Assembly: GCF_001447785.1 (NCBI RefSeq)
Contig: NW_015160859.1
Span: forward strand, 646,569 to 710,568
DNA from: Gekko japonicus
Lineage: Eukaryota
DNA: 64,000 nucleotides
Direction: 5' to 3'
The notes below the pieces were generated by a model, which had not been told where the DNA came from, made no database searches, and was given only the letters and a program-made list of their open reading frames with translations. Shown here one piece after another: positions 3,339 through 52,526 of this stretch (its first letter is position 1; every line of letters begins with the position of its first letter). A program made the translations under genes and the position numbers.

Positions 3339-6300
3339 ATTTATTTATTTATCAAATTTCTACCCCGCCCTCCCAGCCAAGGCTGGCTCAGGGTGGCTTA
3401 CACAGGAATAAACACATAAATTACACTAAAACATAAATTACAGTTAAAACAATTCTAAAGCCATCTAAACCTTCCGACATAATAAAGTGCTAGTAGTCAC
3501 TATTGTTAGTTTAGCGATGGCAGCCATTATTCAATACTCCCTTCTCACAGTCGGCTCCTAGACCTTCCTTTAGTTGTCCTATAGATGGCTGGCTCAGGCT
3601 GATATTGGAAAATTCCAGGGGGGCAGGGCTTTCTATCCGTCAGCTGTTAGTTGTTAATTGTTGGCAACAGCTCCAAAGGCCTGATGGAAGAGCTCCGTTT
3701 TACAGGCCCTGGGGAACTGTAAGAGGTCCTGCAGGGCCCTGATCTCTTCTGGGAGATCACTCCACCAGGATGGAGCTGCCACCGAGAAAGCCCTGGCCCT
3801 GGTTATTGACAGCCTGACCTCCTTGAAGCCCGGGAGGGCCAGTCGGTTCTGGGGAACATGTGGGGAAAGGCGTTCCTCAGATATGTAGGCCCCTGAACAT
3901 AAAGGGCTTTAAAGGTAAGCACTGGCACCTTGAAATGAATCTGGTATGCTATCAGCAGCCAGTGCAATGCCTTTCGGACAGGCTGGATGTGCTTCCAAAT
4001 AGGGAGTCCCATCAGAAGCCTGGCCACAGCATTTTGCACCAGCTGCAGCTTCTGGATTTGCGACAAGGGCAGCCCCATGTAGAGAGCATTAAAGGTAAAA
4101 TGTAAAGGTTTCCCTTGCTCGAAATCCAGTTGAATCTGGCTTTAGGGATGCAGTGCTTATCTCTGTTTCCAAGCCAAAGAGCCAGTGCTGTCCAAAGACA
4201 TTTCCATGGTCATGTGGCCAGCATGACTAGATGCCGAGGCGCATGGAAACCTTACCACCTAAGTGGTACCTATTTATCTACTTGCTTTCAAACTGCTAGG
4301 TTGGCAGGAACTGGGGCCAGAGACAGGAGCTCCCTCCATCACGTGGCACTAGAGTCTCGAACTGCTGAGCTACAGACCTTCCGGTCTGCAGTTCAGCATC
4401 TTAACCACTTGAGCGTTACAATATTCCAATCTCAAGGTGACCATCGCATGGATCACTGTAGCCAAGTCGTTGCATTAGAGGAAGGGAACCAACTGCCTGA
4501 TCAGCTGAAGATGGTAAAAGGCTGATTTGGCAGTGGCTGCCACCTGAGCCTCCAACGCTGACACCAGTGGTGCCCTATCGAAGGTCAGGAGCGGGATCCC
4601 TACCCTCAGGCTGCCCCGGCTAAGGCACAGGACCTCCATCTTCATCGGATTCAATCGGCTCAGCCTAAGCCAACCAGCCACGGCTTGTAATGCCCAGTCC
4701 AGATCTTCTGGTTTGGAGTCAGACTGGCCACCCGACAGCAGATATAGCTGGATGTCATCCGCATACTGGTGACATCCCAGCCCATGTCTCCGGGCAATCT
4801 CAGCAAGGGGGCACATATAGATATTAAAAAGCATCAGGGACAGCACTGCCCCATGAGGCACTCCACAACCCAGTGGGTGCCTTCGGGATAGCTGTTCCCC
4901 CAGTGCCACCCTCTGTCCCCAACCATGGAGAATGGAGGCAAGCCATTGCAAGGCCAGCCCCTGGACTCCAGTGTCAGCGAGGCACTGGATCAGTAGTTGA
5001 TGGCTGACTCTGTCTAACATTGTTGACAGGTCCAACAACAACAGCACTGCTGATCCGCCCCAACCCAGATGCCTCTGGAGGTTGTCTGTGAGGGTGACCA
5101 GTGCCGTCTCTGTCCCATGACCCAGGTGAAAACTGGACTGGAAGGGGTCTAAAATGGAAACATCATCCAAAAAGCCCTGTAACTAAATTGCCACTGCCCT
5201 CTCTATTATCTTGCCCAAATAGGGAAAGTTGCCCAAATAGGGAGCTGGCACCAATGGCGCCCCACCGAAGGCCAGAAGTGGGACCCCTACCCCCGTACCA
5301 CTCCAATTCAGGCATAGGACCTCCATCTTCGTCGGATTCAGTTTCAGTCGACTCAGCCTAAGCCAGTCCACTACGTCCCGCAGCGCTCGGTCCAGATCTT
5401 CCGGGTTAGAGCCAGACTGACCACCCAACAACAGATATAATACTCTCTTTACAGCTTTGACTGCCACCTCACAGGATCTCATAAATGTCCTATAAGATGT
5501 TCTTGTAGCTTTGTTGCGGGTGCACCGCCACTGTCTCTCTAGCCATCTTAGCCCTTGCTTCATCAGCCGCAGCTCCTTGGTAAACCATGGAGCGAGCCTA
5601 CAGTGAGGGCACAGAAGGCATTGGGGAGCAATCTCGTCAATGGCTGTCAAGAGTCAGTTATACCAATCCTCTACAAGCTCTTCTAACGAGCCACCAGGCA
5701 GCATCAGATTCCGGAGAGCCATCTGAAGTTGCAGAGGTTCTATTTGGCTCCACGGGTGAGCCAAAATGTACTTGCCGCCCAAACAGGTGGGGTGAAATAT
5801 TCAGACGGGCCTTCAAGGCAAAGTGGTCCCACCATGGTACCGCCAAAGCGGTAATCCAGTCCACTGTAACCCCCTCCACGAAGATCAAATCAAGCATGTG
5901 CCCAGTGGGTGGGAGTTGTTACATATTGGGAGAGTCCTAGTGCCACCATGGACAACTCCAGGTCCATTGCCTGAGTAGAGGCCGCATCATCAGCATGGAC
6001 ATTGAAATCACCCGGGACTATCAGTCTAGGTTGTCCTAATGCTCAGCATGATACGGCCTCCACCAGGGATGGCAGGCTATTGGCCGGTGCGTTGGCCAGT
6101 CAGTACACCAACCAAATCGCCACACTCTCCTCAGCTTCCCACACTAGGCCGGCCCATGTTCCTCGATGGTGGGAGTGCTCTGAAGGAGTAAGCCTCCTGG
6201 ATGAATAGAGCCACTTCTTCCCCCCTCCGCCCCCTAGTCCGCAATTGGTGAAGGACCGAGAACCCAGGAGGAGCCAACTGGGAGAAAGCTACTGTCTCCC

Positions 6301-13080: not shown

Positions 13081-13838
13081 TGAGGCACCTCCACTAGATG
13101 AGTTTTTTGTCTGAAAAATTAATGGTAGCCTGAAGAGACTGCATGTATTAAGGGGAGAGAAGCATCCATTAAAGGCTGAGAAGTCTAAGAAAAAGGAATG
13201 GTACAAGATAGTGTAGGCATGCCAAGGGAATTGTGTCACATCACTAATTATGATACAGTAAATATCCAACTCAAGCCTATGACAAATTCCACACAGCAAT
13301 TACAGTAATTGTGATTGGGTGAGATACCTGGGGGAAGTAGCACATTTTCCCCATTGTTCTAAATACTGTGCTTTGGATGCTGTGAAAATGAACTATTTTT
13401 AAAATATTAAGGGAAGACACAGGCACACACACACCCACAAAACTCTGATTTGGGTCCATGAGTATGGCTCCCATATGGGGATTCCCCCCTTTAGCCCTTT
13501 AAAAACCACTTTCCCTTTCCCAGCCAATCTATGCTATATCTTGGATGTGTTGGAATGAGACGGTGAAGGGAATGGGTAGGGGCTTCAGGCCATGGGCAGC
13601 CTGGCATAATCAGCATTGTACAGCATTTTTGCAGATGCATTACAGAGGAAAGGGGGAGGAGTAAGGCATCATGCAGAGGAAAAATAGGTATGGATCTGGT
13701 TACTGCTTGTTACCTCTCCATTTGTGCTGCAACAATGGGTGCATGTTTTGGTGTCCTCATATAGATGCCTTAGATAAAATCAGTTCATTCTCCAGAGGTC
13801 CCCAAATCCATGGCTGTTTTGTTTGTTTTTATAAACAG

Positions 13839-14355
13839 GCTGTTTGTCGAAGCAATGGCTTCTTCTCATACAACATACCCACCTGGTTTGGTACTACAAA
13901 ATATGTGAAACCTCTCATTCAAAAACTGTGTGCTCATGAACAAATGCTCTGCAGCAAGACTTGCTACAACTCAGTCAACATAGCTTTCCTGATTGATGGT
14001 TCCAGCAGTGTTGGAGACAGCAACTTCCGTCTCATGCTTGAATTTATCGGCAATGTTGCCAAAGCATTTGAGATCACAGATATTGGTTCCAAAATTGCAG
14101 TGGTACAGTTTACATATGATCAGCGCATGGAGTTCAGCTTTACAGACTATATTACAAAAGAAAGGGTTCTTGCTGCTGTTCGAGGAGTTCGTTATATGAG
14201 TGGTGGAACTGCTACTGGAGAAGCCATTACATACACAACCAGAAATGTTTTTGGACCTGTGAGAAATGGACCGAACAAAAACTTCCTGGTGATTTTGACC
14301 GATGGCCAGTCTTATGATGATGTCAGAGGGCCTGCTGCTGTTGCTCATAAAGCAG
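13839..14355 (+). CDS. COCH: Cochlin coding exon (linker + vWFA2), 517 bp
   Basis: taaacAG|GCTGTTTGT...AAAGCAG|GTaaat. Encodes [11 protein letters not shown]...[26 protein letters not shown]...[20 protein letters not shown], with the DxSxS MIDAS motif. Confidence 0.98.
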
Positions 14356-14859
14356 GTAAATGATTCTAGAACAAATTTAAAATGTTAATACGTTCACAGA
14401 ACTGTAGGCAGACAGCTAGGTATGAAACCTATCATAAATTTAATGCATGAGAAGTTAACTCCGTGAATTAATGCATGAGAAGTTAACTCAATGAACTCAA
14501 GCTGGTTTTAAACCAGCACGACTGCTGTGACTATCCCCAAGCCTAACAATTGTCAGTTGATATGAGTATGTTAGGAAGTTTGAGAAAGCTACAATTCCCC
14601 AAATTTCCAACATTCTGGAAAATTCTGTTTCTGAATGCTTGTAGTCTGAGTGGATGTGCATGTCAGAAGAAATTTCTTCTAGTTGCTATATGCACTATTG
14701 TAGAATCATCCTTAAGATAGTTCCAGGTAGTCACCCGTGTTGGTCTGAAGCAGTAGAACAAATTTAGATTCCAGTGGCACCTTTAAGACCAACAAAGGTT
14801 TATTCAAGATATGGGCTTTCATATGCATGCACACTTTTTCTAATACATTAGAATGGAAG

Positions 14860-16285: not shown

Positions 16286-16654
16286 CTCTTTGTTGTGGTC
16301 TCTGTGCAGTCCCACAAATGGGTTGGACACCTGCGCACGACCTCGACCGGAGAATTTCCGAGCTTGCCTCAGGAGTCTTTTTGGCGAGCTCTCTTCCTGC
16401 CCTGGGGATCAGACATGCAGTGCGCATGCCTGGAGAGGGGGAGAGAGCCGCCTCCCACTCAGTTCTTCTTTGATCGCCTTCGTGTTCACACCTCGCTACC
16501 GTCGCGCTTCAATTTGCCTCAGCTGAGTATCTGCTTTGGAGCTCTTCGTCCTGGTTCTTCTCATTTCTTCTTTCTTACTTAAAAAAAACAACAGCAGTTT
16601 ACTATCTTTATTCACTTTCATTCTTACCCCCCCCCCCCTTTAGAAGGTGTTTGT

Positions 16655-18643
16655 ATGGGCCGCACCCTATTTTTCAAGTTGTGTCACCATTGCCCAGCCA
16701 AACTCCCATCTAACGACGGCCACGACCTCTGTTTGATTTGTTTGGGAGAGTTCCACCACGTTGATTTGTGCCCCCATTGTGCAAAGTTTACTCGTCAGGC
16801 CTGTAGAAATAGGGCAGCGCACCTCCGAATGGTTCTTTTAGAAGCGGCATTGCACCCTACAATGTCCTCAGTAGCTTCTCCGGCTTCTTCTGCCCTGCAG
16901 AAATCTTCTTCACGCCCCGACAATGCAAAATCTTCGAAGCATAAAGGTAAAAAGCGCGAAGAAAAACTCCCATCGAAGCTGAACTTGAAACCAAAAAAGA
17001 AGAAGAAGCTGAACTTGAAGCTATCAACGTTGGCTTAAACTCTGAAACTCGATCCTGTCGTGATCTCTGGTCTCTTGACGTCGACTCCCATCATATCTTC
17101 TGGAACGGCATCTTCTAAGGCTCACCTCCAGCCTCCCACTCCCCCGCCGACCTTGACCTCCCCGGCGGACCATATCCCACCTGGTCAACAATTGAGGTTG
17201 CCACTATGGAAGTCTTCTTCTCATCATGGTTCTCCTCAGTCGGCTTGTCAATCTCGGTGCCGTGACTCCCATATGCCTATCCACCCTTTGGATTACAGGG
17301 AGCCTTTTCTGTGACGTCGTTTTAGGTCGAGATCCCACTATGATCGAAGGGCATAAAACCATCAGAGGTCACCTTCTCGATCAAGATCCACATCTGATTA
17401 CAGGTCTTGGTCCCCAGATGTCAGGCACCAAAGAGCGTATTACCCATGCTCTTACTCTCGGTCTTCTACTCCACATGAAGACTGCTATGACTGGTTCCGG
17501 GATTCTGATCTCCAGAGGCGTCGGCTGACTCCGCCTTACTCCAAGCGCTCACAGTCTGTGGCCTCCATCCATTCCTTGGAGCTCGATCAGCCTCCAGATG
17601 CATTGATGTCAGTGGATGCCCCGAAGCATTCTCCCTTAGTACCTTGGTACCGCCCACCCACGGATGACCAGACACCTCTTATTGTCTCTCAACATCTTCG
17701 ATCACTGTCTCTGGACTCAGTGTCTGACTGTTCTGTCTCGGGTGACCTTGACCCTGACATAATTCCTATTGACAATGATCCTCGTCGTTTGGGCTCTGTC
17801 TCTCCAACTGAGGGCCCAAAGGCCTATTTGGAGCTTGTCGCATGGATGGCCACAGCTCTCCAAGTGCAAGGTTCTACCGACAGTCCAGCGGTAACCGATG
17901 TTGTTCATAAACTGCTGCAGGCAGACTTACCACCTTCGACAATCTTACCACTGCTTCCGGTCCACCTATCGGTGCTTAAAGAATCCTGGGACCATCCTGC
18001 CTCTGTCCCTCCAATATCAAAGCATTATGATGGCCTTTATAAGGTCCAAGAGGCCTCCAGAAAATTCTTCTTCACTCAGCCTCATCCGAACTCGATGGTT
18101 GTTCATTCCTCTTCAAAATCTGAACAGCATCGCCAATCTGCTCCTCCCGATCGTGAAGGTCATAAGATTGATGCTATCGCAAAGAAAACTTACTCTGTCG
18201 CGTCCATGAACATTAGAATTGATACCTACCTATCATACCTCTCCGCTTATGCATTTAACATAGCCACTGCTGTTCGTCCGGTTCTTGAATTTGTCCTACA
18301 GGAACACCGTCTTACACTGTCAGCTGCCCTGTCAGAAATCTGCACGATTTCTAAACAACAAATTACCTCAATTCGTCATGCTGTTACCTGCTCTTCTAAA
18401 GTCCTCGCTTCTTCCATCGCTCTTCGCCGTCATGCTTGGCTTAGGAGTACTTCTCTCCAGACGGATGTTAAATTTAAAACCGAGGATCTACCAATTGATG
18501 GTGAAGGACTTTTTCATTCCACTACGGATGAGACACTGAAAGCTGTCGATGACAGTAGGAAACAAGCTCTAAACCTTGGAGTCTCTACTTCCACACCGCG
18601 GCCTCGATACCACTCATGGAGGCCATACTACAATAAGCACTAG
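16655..18643 (+). pseudogene. DIRS gag-like ORF1 (Cys/His knuckle + LAP2alpha-like domain), interrupted
   Basis: FKLCHHC...DGHDLCLICLGEFH...CPHC; later ESWDHPAS...HPNSMVV...SIALRRHAWLRS...DLPIDGEGLF, typical of vertebrate DIRS ORF1. Confidence 0.85.
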
Positions 18644-18774
18644 CCATCCCCTGCTACCACCTAGCAGTGGAGGAAGAAATCCTACGATTCTCATCCATCT
18701 CAACGACCCTGGCAACAACCGCCTAAAAAGCCGCAACAGCCTAAGCCTGCCTCCACCTCCTTCTTTCACCCCTC

Positions 18775-20870
18775 CCATTGGGCTCTTCCCCTTCCTTCCA
18801 ACCTGGGAAGACATCACTACCAACTCCTGGGTCCTTACCATCGTATGGGTCAGGTACGCCATAGAGTTCATTTTGCCCCCAATGCTTCATCATCACACCC
18901 CCAGATCCATTACTTCGTCTAGAGGTCCGGACACTCCTTGACAAAGGGGCCATCGAGATCGTCCCAGAGGTGCAACGAACTCTCAGCTTCTACTCCAAGT
19001 ATTTCCTAGTTCCCAAACGGGACGGCAGTTTTTGGGCTATCATGGATCTTCGAGATCTCAGTCATTCTGTTCACTGCAAGAGGGTTTCGCATGGTCACCT
19101 TATAATCTATCCTTCCTCTCCTCCTGAAATCCGGCTGGCTGGCGTCAATAGATCTCCAAGACGTCTATTATCTTGTCACCATCCGCCCCCAACATTGAAA
19201 ATTCCTCCGTTTTGCCGTCGGAGACGCCCATTATCAATATCGTGTCCTTCCGTTCTGACTTTGTACGGCCCCCATTGTCTTTTCGAAAATTATGGCCGTA
19301 GTTGCCGCCGAGCTACATCATCAGGGGATTGTTCTTTACCTCTATATCAACTACTGGCTTCCTGTTGCTCCCACAGAGGCTCAACTTCTCCAAGACGTTT
19401 GAACCACCCTTGCATCCTACCTTGGGACTGTGTGTCAATCTTTTGAAATCTGCACTTCAACCTGTCCAGGTTCTACACTTCCTAGGAGCCCAACTCGATA
19501 CCATCTTAGAGATGGCCTTCCTTTCTGAATCGAGAGCCTCGGACATAATGGCCTTGGTGTCCACCTTCATGACATGTTCGCGACAATTGGCTTGATCCGT
19601 CATAAGGCTCCTGGGTTACTTCACGTCCACTGTCTTTGTGGTCCAACATGCCAGGCTGAGGATGTACCCTCTTTAGCTCTGGTTTTTCCGAGCCTTCAAT
19701 CTTCAAACCAGCACTTGGCACACAACGCTCTCGATCCTGTCCCTAGTGCTAGAATCCCTGTCGTGGTGGTCCGTCCCGCAGAATCTCCTATCGGGCATAC
19801 CGTTTCAACATCCACCTCCGGAGATCTACCTATCGACAGATGCATCCCTTTGGGGTTGGGGAGACCACTACGGGACTCTGTCTGTGAGAAGAAATTGGTC
19901 GCTCCGAGACAAGACTCTCCACATCAGTGCTTTGGAGCTTCGGGCTGTTCATCCAGCTTTGGTGTTGTTCCTCCCAATTCTTAAGGGCAAAATTGTCCAG
20001 ATTGCCTCGGACAACATCACAGCAGTCTTCTATATCAACAAACAGGGTGGGACCGCTTCAGTCTGCCTCTGTCACGCAGCCGTTCGTCTCTGGACCTGGT
20101 GTCTTCACCATGCAATTACGATATCGGCTATCCACATTCCAGGTGTTCAAAATGTCAACACCAATATTTTAAGCCGCTCGGTCCCGCAGGACAACAGATA
20201 GTCCCTTCATCCTCGATTGCTCTGACCCATCTTTCTAGAGTTCGGACTATCGACGGCTTTGCTACCCCAGAAAATGCTTGCTGTCCCCTCTTCTTCGCTC
20301 GGGGTCCACCATCTACTTGATCCCTCAGCAATGCCTTTCTTCACAAATGGAATGGGACCCTGCTTTATTTTTTCCCTCCCTTTTCTCTTGGTATAGTGGT
20401 TAAGTGTGCGAACTCTAATCTGGGAGAACCGGGTTTGATTCCCCACTCCTCCACTCGCACCTGGCTGGATGACCTTGGGCAAGCTGTAGTTCTGATAAGA
20501 GCTGTTCTTGAAAAAGAGCAGTTTCTGTCAGAGCGCTCTCAGCCCCACCTACCTCACAGGGTGTCTGTTGTGGGGAGGGGAAGGGAAAGGAGTTTGTAAG
20601 TCGCTCTGAGACTCCCTTGGGTAGTGAAGGGCGGGGTATAAATCCAATCTCTTCTTCTTCTTCTCATCTCGAGGGTTCTTCAGAAAATTGTGGCGGATGC
20701 CATATCCTGCATCCTCATTACTCCTTGGTGGCCACGCCAAGTGTGGTTCCCGCACCTGCTTTGTCTCTCCAACAGCCACTTTCTTCATCTGCCTCATATG
20801 CCCAATCTCCTCTCTTGAGATTGGGGCTGAGTTCTCCACCACAACCTGGCCTTTTTCAAGCTCACTGCTT
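18775..20870 (+). pseudogene. DIRS RT / RNase H / adenine-methyltransferase-like region, frameshifted and SINE-interrupted
   Basis: FYSKYFLVPKRDGS..IMDLRDL (RT); STDASLWGWG, HISALELRAV, SDNITAVFYINKQGGT, HIPGVQN (RNase H); IDGFATPENA and TPWWPRQVWFP (MT-like). Confidence 0.88.
20388..20665 (+). mobile_element. Squam3-like SINE inserted in the DIRS MT-like region
   Basis: Near-identical to 9838-10110; short TTCTC duplication at the junctions. Confidence 0.9.
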
Positions 20871-20889
20871 GGAGGGTTCTGCATTAGAC

Positions 20890-21900
20890 TTCCCACCTGA
20901 AGTGTCGGAAGTATTACTTAATGCGAGAAAACCGTCTACCCGGCGGAACTATTGTTTCAAATGGAAGAAGTTCGAGTCTTACGCGTCGCAACACTGCTTC
21001 GATCCTACCCAGTCTTCTCTATGAGATATCTTCTCTTACATGGTGTCTTTAAAGGACTCTGGTCTGGCATACTCTTCTCTGAGTTCACCTTGCTGCCATC
21101 TCCGCGTATCACCCTTTGATGCAGGGCTCCACTGTCTTCTCTCACCGCTTGATGAGGTCCTTTCTGAAAGGTCTCCTTTGTCTTTGTCCACTGAGAAAAC
21201 TGATGGTGCCTTCCTGGAGTTTGTCTTTAGTCCTCGCCCAACAGCTGGCTAAGCCTTTCAAGCCCATGGCTACTGTAGATCTTCGGCTCCTGTCATGGAA
21301 AACGGCCTTTCTCATTGGCATTACAACGGCTCACCAGGTGGGAGAGCTTGCTGCTTTCTGGGCAGACCCTCCATATACAATTTTCCACAGGGACAAGGTT
21401 GTTCTGCAGTCAGATCCCTCCTTTCTTCCTAAAGTGGTCTCTGCCTTTCATCTCTCTCAGTATTCTGGTCCTCCCTACTTTCTTTTCGAACCTGGCTGAC
21501 GCACCACAATGAGCCCTGCACTGCCTCGACGTCAGAAGGGCTCTTTCCTTCTGTCTGCACTGCACGCAGCCCTTTTGGAAATCTCCGAGGCTTTTTGTTG
21601 CCTATGCCTCCCCATGTAGGGGCAAGGCTATCTCCTCCCAGTGCTTGTTGAAATGGGTGACCTCGACCATAGCCCTTTGCTATGAGTTAGCCCATCAGCC
21701 CATACCTACCTCTGTCACTGCTCATTCCATGAGGGCAGTCTTGACTTCAACTGCCTTTCTGGCTGGTGTCCTGTTGGAAGACGTCTGTGCTGCTGCCACG
21801 TGGTCTTCGACATTGACTTTCATGTCCCACTATGCACTACACGTTTGAGCTTGACGGGATCCTGGATTTGGCCAGGCGGTGCTACGCTCTCTCTTCACCT
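20890..21900 (+). pseudogene. DIRS tyrosine recombinase, disrupted
   Basis: NARKPSTRRNYCFKWKKF; PSWSLSLVL; LSWKTAFLIGITTAHQVGEL; FLPKVVS; AHSMRA...AATWSS..TFMSHY. Confidence 0.9.
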
Positions 21901-22020
21901 GATGCTTCTGTTTCTTCAGGTAGGACCTGTAAATGGAAATGATATCCCTATGTCCTAACCTATTTATTGTTTCTTTTAGCTGCCAGTTCCCTCCTCTGAC
22001 TGGTTTAGCTCTTTTAATCA

Positions 22021-22117
22021 CCCATGTGTGGGATTGCACAGAGACCATGACGAAGATAAATAGGTTGCTTACCTGTAACTGATGATCTTCGAGTGGTCAT
22101 CTGTGCAGTACCACAAT
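22021..22117 (+). repeat. DIRS internal complementary region (ICR)
   Basis: First half is the reverse complement of the left end (16287-16322); second half is the reverse complement of the right end (22347-22404). Confidence 0.93.
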
Positions 22118-22777
22118 CCCACCTGACCTTCCCCACTGCTGGCATCTCCTGATCACTTACCTTGAGTTGATGGGACTTAACAGTAGCAGTCAAAGGAACT
22201 GAGTGGGAGGCGGCTCTCTCTCCCGCTCCAGGCATGCACACTGCATGTCTGCTCCCCAGGGCAGGAAGAGAGCCCACCAAAAAGACTCCTGAAGCAAGCT
22301 CTGGAACATTCTCCAGTCGAGGTCGTGTGCAGGCACCCAACCCATGTGTGGTACTGCACAGATGACTACTCGAAGATCATCAGTTACAGGTAAGCAATCT
22401 GTTTTTTATTATTATAGACAGAGGCTGAACAGCATATTTACATGTAACATGATTAAGATATTATCAGGTCAGGTTATCAGCTAAGGTTATCAGGTCAACA
22501 GTTGTTTTGATTTAATTAAGGGGGGCAATAAATATGTCAACATAGGAGATAAATGTGTAAAGGTATCTTTTCTAATTGTGGGAAGTAAACTGAGACTCTC
22601 CATTAGTCTCCTCTCAGGCGTGGAGGTAACTTAACAGCATTTTTCTTCTTCACTGAGGTGGGTGCAGTGTTCTATCAACAAAACATTTCAATATTCCCTG
22701 TATTACATTCAGTATTCAGATGTAGTATTCTGAAAAGGAAATACACTAAAATACAGAAGATGTATAGTCCTTCTTGT

Positions 22778-29877: not shown

Positions 29878-30078
29878 TTTTTTGCTGTCACTTCTTATCT
29901 GATGTATGGCAACCCCAGGTAGGGTTTTCAAGGCAAGAGACATTCAGAGGTGGTTTGTCACTGACTGCCTCCACATCATGGCCCTGGTATTCCTTGATCA
30001 TCTCCCATCCAAATACTGGCCAAGGCCAACTCTGCTTAGCTTCTGAGATCTGACGAGATCAGACTATCCTGGTCAGGG
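29878..30078 (-). mobile_element. 5S rRNA-derived SINE (SINE3) with RTE/BovB-like tail
   Basis: 30001-30065 is the reverse complement of a degenerate 5S core (GATCTCGTCAGATCTCAGAAGCTAAGCAG...TTGGATGGGAGA). The tail resembles the BovB 5' segment at 49419-49470. Confidence 0.8.
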
Positions 30079-30187
30079 CTCTGCTAGTCTAGGGGGATGA
30101 AAACTTCATTTTGTCTACTCAAGATATCTGATTGCATTGTTTTTATATTTTGTAATCTGTCTTAAGTCTCAGGAAGATAGTGGACTA

Positions 30188-30500: not shown

Positions 30501-31018
30501 AAAACTCTTTTAATTTCAACCCATTTGCTCTGGTCAGACCAGAATGAAGTAAATAAATATACAAGTAAGCTGTACACTTATGTTCAAAAGTTTAAAGGCT
30601 TGGTTCTGAACATACTAAGGATTATTAAGGACAAAAAACTGTTTTTTAAGAATATTTGTTCTGGGATTTTTATCTCACAATAACTATGGCAATGTTATCA
30701 AAGTGATATACAATAAATAAGCACAGGGAGTTATGGTTTGGGGAGCTGCAGGATAGTACATAGGCACATACGTTTTTAACAGTAGATGGTGAGCTAATCT
30801 TCCCAACATACTTTCATTACTTTAAAAAAAAATAAAAATATTGTCGTGGTAAGCCATAGTAAACAGTGTTGCAGTTACCTGTAACTGTTGTTCACTGAGT
30901 GGTCTTCTATGCAGGCCCACATTGAGACTGAGTGTGTGCAGGCCAGATGCAGAAAAGATTTCCAAAGCTTTCTAACAGACTAGGAGTGCCCCTCCTCCCT
31001 CTGGCATTTTTCTGCCAA

Positions 31019-31542
31019 TTTCAGTACCTAAAAAGGTTAGTCAAGAATAGAAGAGGGCCAACTAAAAATCTAATTATGAAACATACAAAAATATACATGT
31101 ATTTATTAAACACAAATTAAAATAACAAATAAGGGCCCATTCATACCTCATATACAAATATAAAAATACAAAGGCTGATGAAATAGACCTAATGCGTTTC
31201 GGCCTTCACAGGTCTTCCTCAGAGGTCTAATGCAAATAGAACATATTGGCTAATATGTAAAAATATATACAATCAAACATATACAAAATATGAAATAAAG
31301 ACCAGAAAACAATTGTTCCAAAGTTTAACCACTGGGCAAAAATACAAATGAAACCTCCAGTGCAATCACATGTCCAGTAGTACTTCTCTCTGGTCAACTA
31401 TATATTCTCCTGAGATTGTATAGCCAAATGTTCCCAATGAAATATTCCTTAAGTTAAAAGCAGTGTTGCTCAAAAAAGTGTTGGACCTATACAGTAGATT
31501 CAGGATTATACAATCCTTAAAGGATGATGTGATCCTTACAGG
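31019..31542 (-). mobile_element. Non-coding hammerhead-bearing insert (retrozyme or Penelope pLTR-like) inside DIRS relic 2
   Basis: A-rich block interrupting the DIRS ITR, flanked by TGCCAA (31013-31018 and 31543-31548); contains the hammerhead listed next. Confidence 0.6.
31184..31229 (-). ncRNA. Minimal type-I hammerhead ribozyme motif (slightly mutated)
   Basis: Minus strand: UAGACCU-CUGAGGA-AGACC-UGUGAA-GGCC-GAAAC-GC-AUU-AGGUCUA. Perfect 7-bp stem I and both core boxes; ACGCAU where palindromic ACGCGU is expected. Confidence 0.75.
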
Positions 31543-32362
31543 TGCCAAAACCATCACATGAGCAGGAGGAGGGATGCTACTTCCTTTTCTCTCCATGCTG
31601 CTGCAGGAGACCCTGAAAAACCTAAGGTTCCAGAGAGTTCACAGTGGGGCGGGAAGGAGGGGGGATGTGTGCCTTGCACAGGAGACCACTTAATGAACAA
31701 CAGTTTTCATCGTTGTGGTATCTGTGAAGTCCCACATTGGGAGACTAGCAAGCTCACTGCATGAAAGAGGTGGGCTTGAAGTTCTCAAAGGAGGAGACCA
31801 TTGAGGACCACATTCCCAACAGCTGTTTAGCATCCCATATTGGTATTCACCCAGAGCTGATTTATAAAGGAGTATCTCTACAAGCGTCCCAACTGAAATA
31901 AATTCAGGAATGTGGCAAGGAAAACCAGTGCTCTGATGGAGAGCTGTGATACACAAAATGGTATTAAAGAGTCACGCACTCAAGAAAAAGTGTGATAGCC
32001 TCTACCAACCCACAAAGACAGGTTGTGTGAGGAAGCTGACAGTTGACCAATCCTTTGTGAAGCCTGAAAAACCAATACAAAGCATTATTAGGGCCCTATC
32101 GGACAAAACCCAAAGTCACATTCAAGTAATGTGAGGAGTGCACAGATGTTTGGCATCAATAACAAGTGTAAGAATAGCATTGTGAGACATGAGGACTGGG
32201 GACAATACCTGGGAATCCTGGCCAGGGCACAGGTTAGAACTACAATTTCCGCATTCCACCTAGAGGTGCAAGATATTGTAATGAAGGAGTGGCACTTGCC
32301 ACACTACCGCTACAATGCAGGAAATGAGTGGATCAAAACTACAAAAAACAGGAGTGAGCTAG

Positions 32363-35300
32363 AAACACTGGGCTTACCTGAAGGTTTCTTCTCTTCAGTG
32401 GGGCAAAGTCATCCAAGCTGGTTAGCTCACGCCTCCTCTTGCTCCAGGCAGGGCTATGCAAATCTTTGTGTGACCTACCTGGGGTGGACTGAGACCATCT
32501 CTCCAGTCGTTCCATACCCAAGCTTTAGCTAGCCTTTGACTTCCTATTAGTAGTTGTAGACTACACCTCTCTCTCTCCATTCCCTTTTTTTGTGTGAGGG
32601 GGAGTGGATAAATTCACCTCACTGAAGAGAAGAAACCTTTAGGTAAGTCCAATGTTTTGTTCTTTTTCAATGGGGGAAATCATCCAAGCTGGTTATATGC
32701 TGAAGTTATCTGATAGGGTGGGATGTATTAGCCAAGGCACTCCTTATTCCAGTTTCACACAACTACTTGCTGTAGCACTCGAATTGAATCTTGCTGGTCA
32801 ATCCTCTGGTGATAGCACTCTTCTCCCAAAGGCTGCTCAAATTGAATCTTGCTGGTCAATCCTCTGGTGCCTTATGAAGGTAGAAAAGAATGAGTAGGTG
32901 GGCTGCCCTACAGATCTCATCTATGGGAGCCCTGATGGAGAAGGCGGCTGAGGCAGCTGCCACCTGGTGGAATGGGCAGTAACACCCTGTGGTGTCCCCA
33001 AGCCCATGATCTCATAGGCTTTATGTATGCCAAGTTTTACACAAAGGGTGATGATAGCTCCTGGTTTAAATGGTAAGCTGAGTTTACTTTAGGAACAAAC
33101 GATGGGCCTGTTCTAAGTACTACAGAGTCCTTGTGGAACACACAAAACTCCCTTCTAACTGACAAGGCCCCCAGTTCTGCAATTCTCCTAGCGAAGGTCA
33201 CTGCCACCAGAAAGGCAACCTTTCACGATAGAAATCTTAGCACCATGGATTTTAGTGGCTCACACGGTGCTCTGGTGAGTGCTTGTAAGACTTTAGTGAG
33301 ACTCCAGGTGGGAAATCAATGTCTCACCAGGGGTGCTAGCTGCGCCATTCCCTTAATGAATCTCCTAACATACGTGTTAGCTGATAAGTTGTGCAACCCT
33401 CTACCTTCCAGGACTGCTGCCAGAGCAGCTACTTGTCTCTTTAGTGCATTTGGTTTTAGTCCTTGCTTTCAACCTTGGTACAAGAGAATAACATCCTTGT
33501 AGGACAGCTTTAAGGGTTCTACACTTTGGTTGCTGGCCCACTTCCTGAACGCAGACCAAGTATAGTTATAAATCCACCTGGTTGTTGGCTTCTTGCCTGC
33601 ACCATGACATTCACCACTTCCTTAGGGAAGACAAACTTTTCTAGTTCCCGCCTCTCAATCTCCATGCAGTCAGCTCAAGCCAGGCTGGGTCCAGGTGCAG
33701 TACCGGTCCCTGTGGCAGAAGGTCTGCCCTCACTGGGAGATGCCATGGGGCGTCCATGGACATCTTGACCACATCCAAGAATCATGGATGTCTTGGCCAG
33801 AAAGGGGTGATGACGATCACCTCTGCCCCCACACTTTGCACTTTGTTCAGCACCTTGTTGATCCATAAATTAAAAAAAATGGGGGTTGGAAGAAAGACAT
33901 ATAGCAAGCCCTCCAAGCCATTGGTGTAGTAGCACATCCTCGCCCTCTGCTTGTGGTTCCAGGAACCTGGGAACCAGCTGGTCCTGCCACAATGTCAGCA
34001 GGTCCATTATCGGGGTAGTGAAGCAAGCAGAGATCTCCCAAAAGGTGTTGTGGTTTCGTGCCCATTCTCCTGGGCCCAAGTCCCTTCTGCTCAGCCAATC
34101 CGCTTGTATGTTTGAGAGGCCTTGCAGGTGCTGCACTCTCATGCCTGTCTATAGGAAGAGGAGCACCTCCTTGTAAAGGGCGATGGCTCTGGTGCTGCCT
34201 TGACTGTTGTCATGTGCCTTTGCTGTCATTTTGTCAGTTTTCATCAGGACATTGATGTCTCTCAGTGAGTCCCAGAAGACAATTAGGGCTAGCCTGACTG
34301 CTTGCAGTTTCACCCAGTTGATGCTGTTCCCCATCTCTGAGGGGGACCACTTGCCTTTCGCCCATTGCAGTGTTCCCCAACCCCGTTTGCTTGCGTCCGT
34401 GGTCAGCATAATGTGGGATGACTGTAGGAAGAACACTCCCTTGATTATGTTCCTTTGTGAAGACCACCATTTTAGTGCTTTCAACACTGAAGGGGGGAAT
34501 TTGAACTGCTTGTGGCGCCTCCTGCTGATGTTCTTCTGGTGCAGTAGTAGCGCCCACTGAAGAGGTCTTGTGTGAAAGCGGGTCCATGGGACAAAATCTA
34601 TTGTTGAATTTAAGAGGCCCAGTGTTGCAGAGAGGTCTAACGCTTTTTGCTTGTGCATCCTTTTGATTGTATCCAAGATCTTCTGTTGTTTCTCTGATGG
34701 GAGAAAGACTCTTGCAGACACCATGTCTAGCCTGGCCCCCAGGTGGACTGGGTCCTTGGATGGGGTAAGCTGGCTCTTTCCTAGGTTTATCAGGAACCCA
34801 TGCTCTCACAGAAGTGGAATAGACTCTTCTGAGTCCCTTGCCACTGATCTGCTGTCCCTGGCCCTGATCAGCAGGTCATCTGATTAAGGATATATGTGGA
34901 TCCCCTGCTGTTTCAGGTAGGCCACAAGCACTACCAGAATCTTGAAGACTCTTGGCAAGGGTGACAAGCCAAACAATAGGGCCGTGCATTGGTAATGTTG
35001 ATCGTCCATGGAGAAATGCAAGAACTGCTTGGAGGATTGGTGTATAGGGATATGCAGGTAAGCCTCCTTGAGATCCAGCAACACCAAGTAGTCATCATCT
35101 TGTTGTATTATTTGGACAACTGAACGAAGTGACTCCATGTGGAACTTCCACTTTTTTATCCACAAGTTCAGTTTCTTTAGGCTGAGAACTGCTTTCCAGT
35201 CTCCTGACTTATTGGGCACCAAGAAAAGACTGAGTAGAACCCTGGAATCTCTCAGCAGTAGGCACCAGCTCAACCACCCCAATGGGCAGAAGATGCTCTA

Positions 35301-44949: not shown

Positions 44950-45175
44950 GAACAAAATTGAAATCCAGTAGCATCTTAAATACCAACAAATTTTCTAAGA
45001 TATAAGCTCATGAGAGACAACACTCACTTCATTAGATACTGATGGTATCTGACGAAGTCACCCTTGACTCTCCAAAAGCTTATACTTGGGGAAATTTTGT
45101 TGGTCTTTAAAACGCTACTGGATTTTTAATTTTGTTCTACTATTACAAACCAGCCACACACATGGAACTAACTTT
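44950..45175. mobile_element. Penelope terminal-repeat hairpin with decayed hammerhead
   Basis: Inverted arms homologous to 38834-39021; GGTATCTGACGA...AAAAGCTTATAC at ~45044-45086. Confidence 0.7.
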
Positions 45176-49283: not shown

Positions 49284-52200
49284 TGGATCACTCATGGATC
49301 ACTGCCTTGTCGTGGCGAGGGGGCTTGCGTGGTTCAATGAAGCTGTGGGCTATGCCGTGTAGGGCCACCCAAGACGGACAGGCCACAGCAGAGAACTCAG
49401 ACCAAGAGTGATCCCCCTGGAGAAGGAAATGGCAACCCACTCCAGGTATTTTTGCCAAGAAAACCCCATGAACAGTATCAAAAGGCTAAAAGATATGATG
49501 CCGGAAGATGAGCCCCTCAGGTCGGAAGGTGTCCAATATGCTACTGAGGAAGAGCAGAGGGCAAGTACAAGTAACCCCAGAAAGAGTGAAGCGGCTGGGC
49601 CAAAGCCGAAAGGACCCTCAGTTGTGGATGTGTCTGATGGTGAAAGGAAAGTCCGATGCTGCAAAGAACAATACTGCATAGGAACCTGGAATGTAAGATC
49701 TATGAATCAAGGTAAGCTTGACGTGGTCAAAAATGAGATGGCAAGACTGAACATCGATATCCTAGGAATCAGTGAACTAAAGTGGACAGGAATGGGCGAA
49801 TTTAACTCAGAAGACCATTATATCTACTACTGTGGCCAGGAATCTCGTAGAAAAAATGGTGTGGCCTTTATAGTCAACAAGAGAGTGCAAAAGGCAGTAC
49901 TGGGATACAATCTCAAAAATGACAGAATGATTTCTGTCCGATTCCAAGGCAAACCATTCAACATCACAGTAATCCAAGTCTATGCCCCAACCACTGATGC
50001 AGAAGAGGCTGAAGTGGACCGGTTCTATGAAGACCTACAACACCTCCTAGAACTAACACCAAAAAATGATGTCCTCATCATCATAGGGGACTGGAATGCT
50101 AAAGTAGGAAGTCAAAAGGTAACTGGAATAACAGACAAGTTTGGCCTTGGAAAGCAAAATGAAGCAGGGCAAAGGTTAACAGAGTTTTGTCAAGAGAACA
50201 CACTGGTCATAGCGAACACCCTTTTCCAACAACCTAAGAGGCGACTCTACACATGGACATCACCAGATGGGCAACACCGAAATCAGATTGACTATATAAT
50301 TTGCAGTCAAAGATGGAGAAGCTCTATCCAGTCAGTAAAAACAAGACCTGGAGCTGACTGTGGTTCAGATCATGAGCTACTCATTGCAAAATTCAGACTT
50401 AAACTGAAGAAAATTGGGAAAACCACGAGGCCATTCAGGTTTGACCTAGATCGCATCCCTGATGAATATACAGTAGAGGTGAAGAATAGATTCAAGGGTC
50501 TGGATTTGATAGATAGAGTGCCTGAAGAACTATGGACAGAGGTTCGTGACATCGTACAGGAGGCAGCAATCACCACCATCCCAAAGAAAAAGAAATGTAA
50601 GAAAGCAAAGTGGCTTTCTGATGAGGCTTTACAAATAGCAGAGGAAAGAAGGAAAGCGAAAGGCAAAGGCGAAAAGGAAAGATTTACCCAACTGAACGCA
50701 GATTTCCAGAGAACAGCAAGGAGAGATAAGGAGGCCTTCCTGAATGAACAGTGCAAAGTAATAGAAGAAAACAATAGAATGGGAAGGACTAGAGATCTCT
50801 TCAAGAAAATTGGAGAAATCAAGGGAGCGTTCCATGCAAAGCTGGCCATGATAAAGGACAAAAACGGTAGGGACCTAACAGAAGCAGAAGAGATTAGGAA
50901 AAGATGGCAAGAATACACAGAAGAACTATACAAGAAAGACCTCGATGTCCTTGACAACCACGACGGTATAATCACTGACCTCGAGCCAGACATCCTGGAA
51001 TGTGAAGTTAAATGGGCCTTAGAAAGCATTGCTAACAACAAAGCTAGTGGAGGTGATGGTATTCCAGCTGAGCTATTCAAAGTCTTAGAAGATGATGCTG
51101 TTAAAGTGCTGCACTCCATTTGCCAGCAAATTTGGAAAACGCAACAGTGGCCACAGGATTGGAAAAGATCAGTATACATTCCAATCCCAAAGAAGGGCAA
51201 TGCCAAGGAATGTTCAAACTATCGCACAATTGCACTCATATCACACGCTAGCAAGGTCATGCTCAAGATCCTACAAGCTAGGCTTCAACAGTACGTGGAT
51301 AGAGAACTACCAGAAGTACAAGCTGGGTTTCGAAGAGGTAGAGGAACTAGAGATCAAATTGCCAACATTCGCTGGATTATGGAGAAAGCAAGAGAGTACC
51401 AGAAAAATATCTACTTCTGCTTCATTGACTATGCTAAAGCCTTTGACTGTGTGGATCACAACAAACTATGGCAGGTCCTTAAAGAGATGGGAGTACCAGA
51501 CCACCTCACATGTCTCTTGAGAAACCTGTATAAGGGCCAAGAAGCGACAGTTAGAACCGGATACGGAACAACTGATTGGTTCAGCATAGGAAAAGGAGTA
51601 CGACAAGGATGTATACTGTCACCTTGCTTATTTAATATATATGCAGAGTACATCATGCGAAATGCTGGCCTGGATGAATCACAAGCGGGAATTAAGATTG
51701 CTGGGGAAAAGATCAACAACCTCAGATATGCAGACGATACCACTCTGATGGCAGAAAGTGAAGAGGACCTCAAGAGCCTCTTGCTCAGGGTAAAAGAGGA
51801 GAGCGCAAAAGTGGGCTTGAAGCTCAACATCAAAAAAACTAAGATCATGGCATCCGGCCCCATCACTCCTTGGCAAATAGAAGGGGAAGTCGTGGAAGTA
51901 GTGACAGACTTCACGTTCCTGGGATCCCAGATCACCGCAGACTGTGACTGCAGCCATGAAATTAAAAGACGCCAGCTCCTTGGGAGGAAAGCGATGGCGA
52001 ACCTAAACAGCATGATAAAAAGTAGAGACATCACCCTGCCAACAAAAGTCCGCATGGTCAAAGCAATGGTATTCCCAGTAGTCATGTATGGCTGCGAGAG
52101 TTGGACTATAAGGAAGGCCGAGCGCAGAAGAATAGATTCTTTTGAACTATGGTGCTGGAGAAGACTCTTGAGAGTCCCTTGGACTGCAAAAAGATCAAAT

Positions 52201-52526
52201 CAGTCAATCCTAAAAGAAATCAACCCTGACTGTTCCCTGGAAAAGAACAAATCAGTCAATCCTAAAAGAAATCAACCCTGACTGTTCCCTGGAAGGTCAG
52301 ATAATGAAACTGAAGCTCAAATACTTTGGCCACCAAATGAGAAGGGAGCACTTACTGGAGAAGACCCTGATGCTGGAAAAGACTGAAGGTCAAAGAAGAC
52401 GGGGACGGCAAAGGATAAGATGGTTAGACAGTGTCATAGATGCAACGAACATGAAATTGAGCAAACTTCAGAGGATGGCGGAAGACAGGAGGGCCTGGCG
52501 GGAACTGGTCCATGAACAACAACAAG
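49284..52526 (+). mobile_element. Full-length RTE-clade BovB LINE
   Basis: 5' CATGGATCACTGCCTTGTCGTGGCGA; (CAA)n tail; 8-bp TSD AAGACTTA (49276-49283, 52527-52534). Confidence 0.97.
49408..52281 (+). CDS. BovB APE endonuclease-reverse transcriptase ORF (957 aa; C-terminus frameshifted, continues in the 52304 frame)
   Basis: IGTWNVRSM, ILGISELKW, GDWNAKVG, QIDYI, GSDH (APE); NYRTIALISH, FIDYAKAFD, GVRQGCILSP, LRYADD (RT). Confidence 0.95.
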   Translation: MIPLEKEMATHSRYFCQENPMNSIKRLKDMMPEDEPLRSEGVQYATEEEQRASTSNPRKSEAAGPKPKGPSVVDVSDGERKVRCCKEQYCIGTWNVRSMNQGKLDVVKNEMARLNIDILGISELKWTGMGEFNSEDHYIYYCGQESRRKNGVAFIVNKRVQKAVLGYNLKNDRMISVRFQGKPFNITVIQVYAPTTDAEEAEVDRFYEDLQHLLELTPKNDVLIIIGDWNAKVGSQKVTGITDKFGLGKQNEAGQRLTEFCQENTLVIANTLFQQPKRRLYTWTSPDGQHRNQIDYIICSQRWRSSIQSVKTRPGADCGSDHELLIAKFRLKLKKIGKTTRPFRFDLDRIPDEYTVEVKNRFKGLDLIDRVPEELWTEVRDIVQEAAITTIPKKKKCKKAKWLSDEALQIAEERRKAKGKGEKERFTQLNADFQRTARRDKEAFLNEQCKVIEENNRMGRTRDLFKKIGEIKGAFHAKLAMIKDKNGRDLTEAEEIRKRWQEYTEELYKKDLDVLDNHDGIITDLEPDILECEVKWALESIANNKASGGDGIPAELFKVLEDDAVKVLHSICQQIWKTQQWPQDWKRSVYIPIPKKGNAKECSNYRTIALISHASKVMLKILQARLQQYVDRELPEVQAGFRRGRGTRDQIANIRWIMEKAREYQKNIYFCFIDYAKAFDCVDHNKLWQVLKEMGVPDHLTCLLRNLYKGQEATVRTGYGTTDWFSIGKGVRQGCILSPCLFNIYAEYIMRNAGLDESQAGIKIAGEKINNLRYADDTTLMAESEEDLKSLLLRVKEESAKVGLKLNIKKTKIMASGPITPWQIEGEVVEVVTDFTFLGSQITADCDCSHEIKRRQLLGRKAMANLNSMIKSRDITLPTKVRMVKAMVFPVVMYGCESWTIRKAERRRIDSFELWCWRRLLRVPWTAKRSNQSILKEINPDCSLEKNKSVNPKRNQP

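Follow-up and report, generated by a model that had tools for sequence, protein, structure and literature searches.

A spliced solo pLTR of a Neptune-type Penelope-like element in the Gekko japonicus genome

The insertion locus

The window analysed here, 64,000 nt of Gekko japonicus DNA (assembly GCF_001447785.1, contig NW_015160859.1), contains a short insert on the minus strand, lodged in the terminus of a DIRS-like element (table 1). The original prediction, made from the sequence alone, had described the insert as flanked by TGCCAA repeats and located in a DIRS inverted terminal repeat (ITR), and the host paralogues confirmed both points. We examined 19 paralogues from the best 40 scored of 568 host candidates in the genome: in 18 the sequence runs uninterrupted with one TGCCAA or a close variant, and in the remaining one the site is deleted. 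Because the paralogues show one hexamer at the unoccupied site, the TGCCAA repeat represents a genuine target duplication. The element shares four letters with it (GGCA on the minus strand), a case of microhomology.

A host paralogue aligns with the 3' end of the DIRS-like element of the window (22027-22394; 64% over 370 nt, E 2e-20), which places the insertion point within the ITR-homologous part of a DIRS-like 3' terminus. This host terminus has an ICR and an inverted terminal repeat homologous to the DIRS 3' end, and no recombinase ORF was found adjoining the host copy at the insertion locus. The DIRS-like element of the window (16287-22404) is decayed and has a left ITR, an ICR and a right ITR; it also has fragments that, from the DIRS layout as we assume it to be, we take for RT/RNase H and recombinase-like. 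A second DIRS-like terminus lies at 32363-32657, and upstream of it on the minus strand there are recombinase- and RNase H-like fragments (~33043-34454).

Table 1. Features of the insert and its host in window coordinates
Feature	Position	Strand	Basis or remark
Solo pLTR of a Neptune-type Penelope-like element, spliced and without the tail (almost certain)	31019..31542	-	Family identity and alignment with intron-bearing copies
TATA-box position	31486..31493	-	Family motif TATATAGG; older subfamilies have TATAAAG; window copy mutated; putative promoter role
Initiator-like CA	31464..31465	-	Probable main transcription start of the family, from the start cluster of spliced copies at 76-94 and the conserved CACTG
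Exon junction 1	31387..31388	-	GT-AG intron of ~80-100 nt removed exactly; alignment with longer copies
Exon junction 2	31315..31316	-	GTAAGT...CTAAT...YAG intron of ~90-105 nt removed exactly; alignment with longer copies
Minimal type I hammerhead, extra A before stem II (predicted)	31184..31230	-	Substitutions at 31213 and 31193; cleavage site would be 31191/31190
AATAAA	31102..31107	-	Also in older subfamilies; possible poly(A) signal, putative role
Target-site duplication TGCCAA, left copy	31013..31018	+	Single hexamer at the empty site in 18/19 host paralogues
Target-site duplication TGCCAA, right copy	31543..31548	+	Microhomology at the 5' junction, the element sharing 4 nt
Host, DIRS-like 3' terminus, distal part (right ITR and extension)	30870..31012	-	Host paralogue comparison
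Host, DIRS-like 3' terminus, proximal part (remaining ITR-homologous segment and ICR)	31549..31755	-	Host paralogue comparison

Identity of the insert

As previously proposed, the insert is non-coding (six-frame translation gave no ORF of note) and U-rich on the minus strand (41% U). The best 40 scored places among 1784 first-look genome candidates are 94-100% identical to it, with 94-98% for the 39 others. Longer copies of the family are continuous with an upstream ORF, absent from the window copy itself, that encodes RT followed by GIY-YIG (PF00078 at 27.9-29.6 bits, cut-off 29.6; PF01541 at 21.7 bits, slightly under its cut-off of 22.6). This result favours one of the two branches left by the original prediction, namely a Penelope-like element (PLE) family with adjacent RT ORFs.

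In the copies L061, L063 and L072, the GIY-YIG domain is preceded by a CxxCxxC linker that reads CGSCEVC. According to the accessible portion of Craig et al. (2021, PMC8557442), a CX2-5CXXC linker in this position marks Neptune or Nematis, and the available part of a recent preprint (bioRxiv 10.64898/2026.07.22.740005) reports that vertebrates hold Neptune and Poseidon. The linker motif and this reported PLE content suggest that the family belongs to the Neptune clade. In two related copies the tail stops 22-27 nt short of the ATG of the ORF, so the repeat is a pLTR. This pLTR-ORF junction was taken from older relatives of the window's family; for the window's own family, the search found no full-length copy in which an upstream pLTR runs into the ORF start.

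The copies have the anatomy of EN+ PLEs, with a type I hammerhead in the pLTR, 5' truncation accompanied by an inverted pLTR piece, an optional tail and variable target duplications. Among 61 junction-anchored copies, 31 have an inverted 5' piece and 12 have duplications of 11-20 nt. Their 5' starts vary. Two clusters stand out among the 59 readable 3' ends, one of 10 copies at 521-529 and one of 25 at 566-575 of the insert; the remaining ends are cut or rearranged. The gap between these two preferred ends corresponds to the optional 3' tail of ~50 nt, which the window copy does not have. The window insert is almost certainly a spliced solo pLTR of a Neptune-type PLE; taken by itself, it is an unremarkable dead representative of a class already described.

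Three other identities were considered and rejected. A 59-codon open stretch is not the end of the endonuclease, which stops ~126 nt upstream in the longer copies. A solo LTR of a retrovirus or Gypsy would show TG...CA ends inside the duplication, and there are none. A MITE with a short terminal inverted repeat was discarded because the family extends past both ends, so that the apparent match vanishes.

The hammerhead ribozyme

The motif reads as the original prediction described it, with stem I UAGACCU/AGGUCUA, the core CUGAGGA plus one A, stem II GACC/GGCC, and GAAAC-GC-AUU. A strict motif scan gave one match in the window and none in 100 mononucleotide shuffles, and an Rfam scan gave no hammerhead model match at E<=5. 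Comparison with family copies confirmed the two substitutions formerly suspected, GGCC to GACC in stem II and GUU to AUU, the latter being a CpG change. Neither the palindrome nor one of the stem II pairs survives in the window copy, and its duplex reaches -2.3 kcal/mol versus -7.5 for the canonical one. In agreement with the earlier suspicion, its ribozyme is thus predicted by folding to be inactive.

Fully canonical motifs account for 32 of the 71 matches in family loci, and a canonical copy co-folds as a dimer via its ACGCGU palindrome. Stem covariation, suggested earlier as a check, was found: the stems are 96% paired, with two-sided changes in 6/15 pairs among 17 sequences whose relatedness inflates this figure. 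Of the other hammerhead-like motifs in the window, which are decayed, two have an AGCU-type stem III, in line with the contrast drawn in the original prediction. These decayed motifs belong to other PLE repeats and lie at 45049 (+), 38920 (-), 53032 (-) and 45484 (-).

The family shares several features with the minimal metazoan PLE hammerheads described in the accessible portion of Cervera and De la Pena (2014, PMC4209133): the extra nucleotide between 9 and 10.1, G10.1-C11.1, a palindromic stem III, a dimer-type organization and mostly dispersed single copies. It differs from them, as far as that portion goes, in having a stem I of 7 bp and a stem II of 4-5 bp and in the location of the ribozyme, which is unaltered by splicing because it lies wholly in exon 3.

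Exact intron loss

Two segments present in the longer copies are absent from the window copy, a feature missed in the original prediction. Each opens with GT, contains a branch-like motif and closes with a pyrimidine tract plus AG, and the window copy is in both cases the exact exon-exon join. Genome-wide exact matches gave 414 spliced versus 33 unspliced copies at junction 1 and 416 versus 50 at junction 2; these counts are lower bounds, and reversed-pattern controls returned 0-1 matches. Spliced copies therefore represent about nine in ten of the junction-covering copies, approximately a tenfold excess over those keeping the introns. We sampled the first 62 of the 414 spliced junctions in contig order and removed the window's own, which left 61 copies, 60 of them measurable; intron 2 was spliced in 47 of the 61 and could not be determined in 14. 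Splice donors and acceptors are kept in subfamilies with pLTRs 63-71% identical.

The insert is thereby shown to derive from the spliced sense RNA of a PLE pLTR, and the hundreds of exactly spliced copies show that such RNA was reverse transcribed in the germ line. It is extremely improbable that the introns were instead lost at the DNA level after insertion, through deletion or cDNA-driven conversion. Intron 1 is bounded by a 2-nt AG repeat that could have favoured such events, but intron 2 has no end repeat, and both introns are gone together at exact splice sites in hundreds of copies, as well as in two families of different sequence (see below).

Copies linked to the ORF behave differently from the window copy and most short copies, which do not retain the introns. 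A search anchored on the ORF end gave 46 candidates, including 21 close-family loci. Intron 1 is kept in 17 of these, lost in one and uninformative in three, that is, 17/18 informative copies keep it, and intron 2 is lost in none of the 21. The exception (L067/L223, C4551), which stands alone among the ORF-linked copies seen in lacking intron 1 while retaining intron 2, indicates that the introns of a 3' pLTR can be spliced.

In RNA-seq data, GT..AG joints were present at both introns in two raw-read runs. They are probably passive transcripts of intron-less genomic copies and no proof of current splicing, since the libraries look unstranded and reads of a related family (family A, below) never cross into the ORF. 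Just beyond window position 31019, the family tail (L210, L254) ends in a pyrimidine tract and YAG resembling a splice acceptor. No sign of a third intron ending there was found: the internal deletions of the copies are not GT-AG and no RNA joint supports it.

Copy starts and linkage to the ORF

The 5' ends of the 60 measurable spliced copies span positions -5 to +144 of the insert, with 32 concentrated at 76-94 and 12 upstream of 76. The TATA box and the CACTG ~30 nt downstream are kept in subfamilies 63-71% identical in the pLTR. The window copy, with its start at about -4, precedes the main start cluster by 83 nt and belongs to a minority class. Such upstream starts, shared to varying degrees by the 12 copies mentioned, imply either that the start site is not unique or that some templates were read-through RNAs.

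None of the 60 spliced copies reached the ORF, whose stop lies at about -126, versus 14 of 33 unspliced copies (Fisher p 5.5e-8). The unspliced set comprises all 33 junctions, 31 measured and two read from flanks, one across an N gap. The 19 unspliced copies that fall short of the ORF include some that retain the TATA region.

Two further young families

A protein search uncovered further young families that share 37-43% identity in the N-terminal part and have near-identical tandem units. For two of them, the distant Neptune families A and B, we used exon-3 queries blind to the splice state and analysed the best 30 by identity of 214 and 291 candidates, respectively, some loci being arms or units of one insertion. 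Exact GT..AG losses were found in 15/30 family-A loci and 6/30 family-B loci. The ORF was reached by 0/15 spliced versus 11/15 unspliced loci in family A (p 5e-5) and by 0/6 versus 17/24 in family B (p 0.003). In family A, the starts of the doubly spliced copies fall at 4370-4386 (one at 4407), ~30 nt after TATATAT; in family B they fall at 1407-1417, at CACTG. RNA-seq of family A gave no reads spanning the pLTR into the ORF.

These data bear on the possibility that the insert is an ordinary 5'-truncated copy of an mRNA 3' end whose 3'-UTR introns had been spliced. The upstream start of the window copy and the ORF-linked copy devoid of intron 1 would agree with it. Nevertheless, spliced copies that reach the ORF are missing from all three families (0/60, 0/15 and 0/6), and the 5' ends pile up after the TATA box instead of being spread. 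We regard this origin as already disfavoured and quite unlikely.

Upstream pLTRs followed by the ORF were spliced in 0/7 cases in families A and B. Nonsense-mediated decay as the sole cause of intron retention was rejected on this basis, as it predicts full-length copies with a spliced upstream pLTR, the sample being weak.

Two family-B insertions combine a spliced inverted arm with an unspliced direct arm, and mixed splice states were found in 0/11 insertions of the window's family (eight spliced/spliced, three unspliced/unspliced). One of these two, L361 (C9076), has its head-to-head inner junction in common with another family-B insertion, L362 (C1150); the short arm is spliced in L361 and unspliced in L362, which hints that the ORF arm was copied from antisense RNA. 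In L366 (C11794), two arms run from the putative start site, one doubly spliced and one unspliced. The loci L281-L294 (e.g. C13427:1060977-1069062 and C2384:13000-20000) hold young Neptune-type families with near-identical tandem units, with periods of 3993 and ~3655 bp; their hammerhead-like motifs are atypical or without GAAA, even though the copies are 99-100% alike.

Recurrent origin of the spliced copies

A tree was built from exon sequence, using the copies covered to 85% or more (45 spliced, 23 unspliced). Along it the splice state switches 19 times, against a shuffled mean of 19.4, and a clade of spliced copies is rejected (AU p 2.9e-6); the window copy itself groups with an unspliced copy. 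Since the spliced copies do not form a clade, they must have originated repeatedly from intron-bearing sources.

The original prediction had also raised the possibility that the insert is a retrozyme. A non-LTR retrozyme is a self-propagating, non-autonomous element cleaved as a dimer and giving circular RNA. The dimer-type hammerhead with covarying stems and the abundance of the intron-less form would be in accordance with such an element, and the preprint cited above, in its accessible portion, ties retrozymes to pLTRs. On the other hand, no head-to-tail hammerhead arrays were found among 61 plus 7 targeted loci, although short-read assembly may collapse arrays. An extra direct piece occurs in only 1/61 loci, and the close same-strand pairs that we fetched are partial or flank-including duplications. 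The unit, from the start cluster or copy start to the tail end, measures ~490-570 nt versus 170-400 nt for a non-LTR retrozyme, and the hammerhead is minimal only, not canonical. Along with the continuity with the RT/GIY-YIG ORF, the inverted pieces in 31/61 copies and the lack of a spliced clade, these results led us to abandon this part of the prediction, and we consider a retrozyme very improbable. No back-joint was present in four RNA-seq runs aligned to L064, runs that are ill-suited to showing circles. Based on the available portions of PMC7229834 and of the same preprint, the insert family resembles non-LTR retrozymes in being non-coding, AT-rich and pLTR-related and in having a type I hammerhead; in contrast, it is longer and not tandem, and it is not self-propagating but part of an autonomous PLE.

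A probable route to spliced solo pLTRs

We consider it likely that the element's RT initiated within a spliced sense RNA, immediately ahead of the ORF, and that the leader alone was copied. Transcription would start ~30 nt after the TATA box, with both introns in the leader, and reverse transcription would start internally at the pLTR-ORF junction. A unit-length mRNA offers a single junction of this kind, that of the leader, so that short spliced solo pLTRs without the ORF would be produced. ORF-less and mostly TATA-less, they would be dead ends. ORF-bearing copies would need a second junction on a longer RNA, either unspliced (nascent read-through) or antisense, and as only ORF-bearing copies propagate, the introns would seem to persist in the lineage. 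Through its ACGCGU palindrome the hammerhead would work in dimeric form, and it would not be needed to explain the window insertion.

In vitro data on a Poseidon element point to similar steps. Its RT primes at two internal sites that define the tail and needs ORF 5' sequence downstream, and hammerhead cleavage is unnecessary for insertion (Frangieh et al. 2024, PMC11167929); internal initiation was thus shown for a Poseidon, not a Neptune, element.

Alternatively, the spliced template may have been a short transcript of intron-bearing solo pLTRs, equipped with a promoter, introns, a hammerhead and a priming site of their own, and mobilised in trans by the PLE protein. Unspliced copies short of the ORF, some with the TATA region, are in fact common (19/33), and the interleaved tree and the start cluster would fit equally well. 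Yet solo pLTRs do not have the ORF 5' sequence that the RT requires downstream of the priming site (PMC11167929), and the copies end at two fixed 3' positions and do not run into flanks, which makes such a template rather unlikely.

Returning to leader copying, PLEs in general could run two template routes, one abundant, in which spliced leaders are copied into dead ends, and one rare and productive, in which unspliced or antisense RNA comes from tandem or inverted sources. We advance this only tentatively, at somewhat less than even chances. If it holds, priming inside the RNA at the pLTR-ORF junction would account for intron retention, for solo pLTRs, for inverted ends and for the tail alike, and the L361/L362 pair would represent genomic evidence of an ORF arm copied from antisense RNA.

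Relation to known Penelope-like elements

With the Neptune PLEs of PMC8557442, in the portion of that paper available, the family shares RT with a C-terminal GIY-YIG and a CxxCxxC linker, a hammerhead in the pLTR, inverted 5' pieces and the optional tail. Two 5'-UTR-type introns in the pLTR and the spliced state of about nine in ten junction-covering copies set it apart from the elements described there. The same portion describes PLEs as retaining introns and calls the significance unknown, and the available part of PMC3846280 leaves open whether antisense or unspliced sense RNA is the PLE template. In our data, intron retention, the trait by which PLEs stand out from other retroelements, is confined to ORF-linked copies, and the question of retention becomes testable.

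According to the accessible part of Schostak et al. (2008, PMC2377424), Penelope from Drosophila virilis has an intron 46 nt after the transcription start. The gecko family would share with it a pLTR promoter, a short intron soon after the start and mostly spliced RNA; D. virilis Penelope, as described there, has one intron and a TATA-less promoter, whereas the gecko family has two introns, a TATA/initiator arrangement and abundant intron-less genomic copies. The Poseidon of Anolis (PAc; PMC11167929) also has two adjacent 3' ends defining a tail and a hammerhead in the pLTR region. In PAc, however, the hammerhead overlaps the ORF start and priming occurs inside the ORF, introns not being discussed, whereas in the window's family the hammerhead lies ~210 nt before the tail end, which sits just before the ATG.

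What distinguishes the PLE family of the window is the large excess and fixed anatomy of its spliced copies. No report of spliced PLE copies was found in the literature searched; subscription papers, supplements and Repbase entries lay outside this scope, and a prior mention is possible. The spliced copies offer a genomic read-out of PLE start, splice and priming sites that ties in with internal initiation in vitro, and leader copies of this kind may account for many of the dispersed "monomer retrozymes".

Other features of the window

At 29973-30086 (-), a 5S rRNA-like sequence scores 30.6 bits, below the Rfam cut-off, and is perhaps a 5S-derived repeat or pseudogene. The open frame at 13665-14363 (+) contains a von Willebrand factor A domain and is probably a host exon. 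Finally, a 972-codon open frame at 49363-52281 (+) contains the endonuclease and RT domains of a non-LTR retrotransposon.
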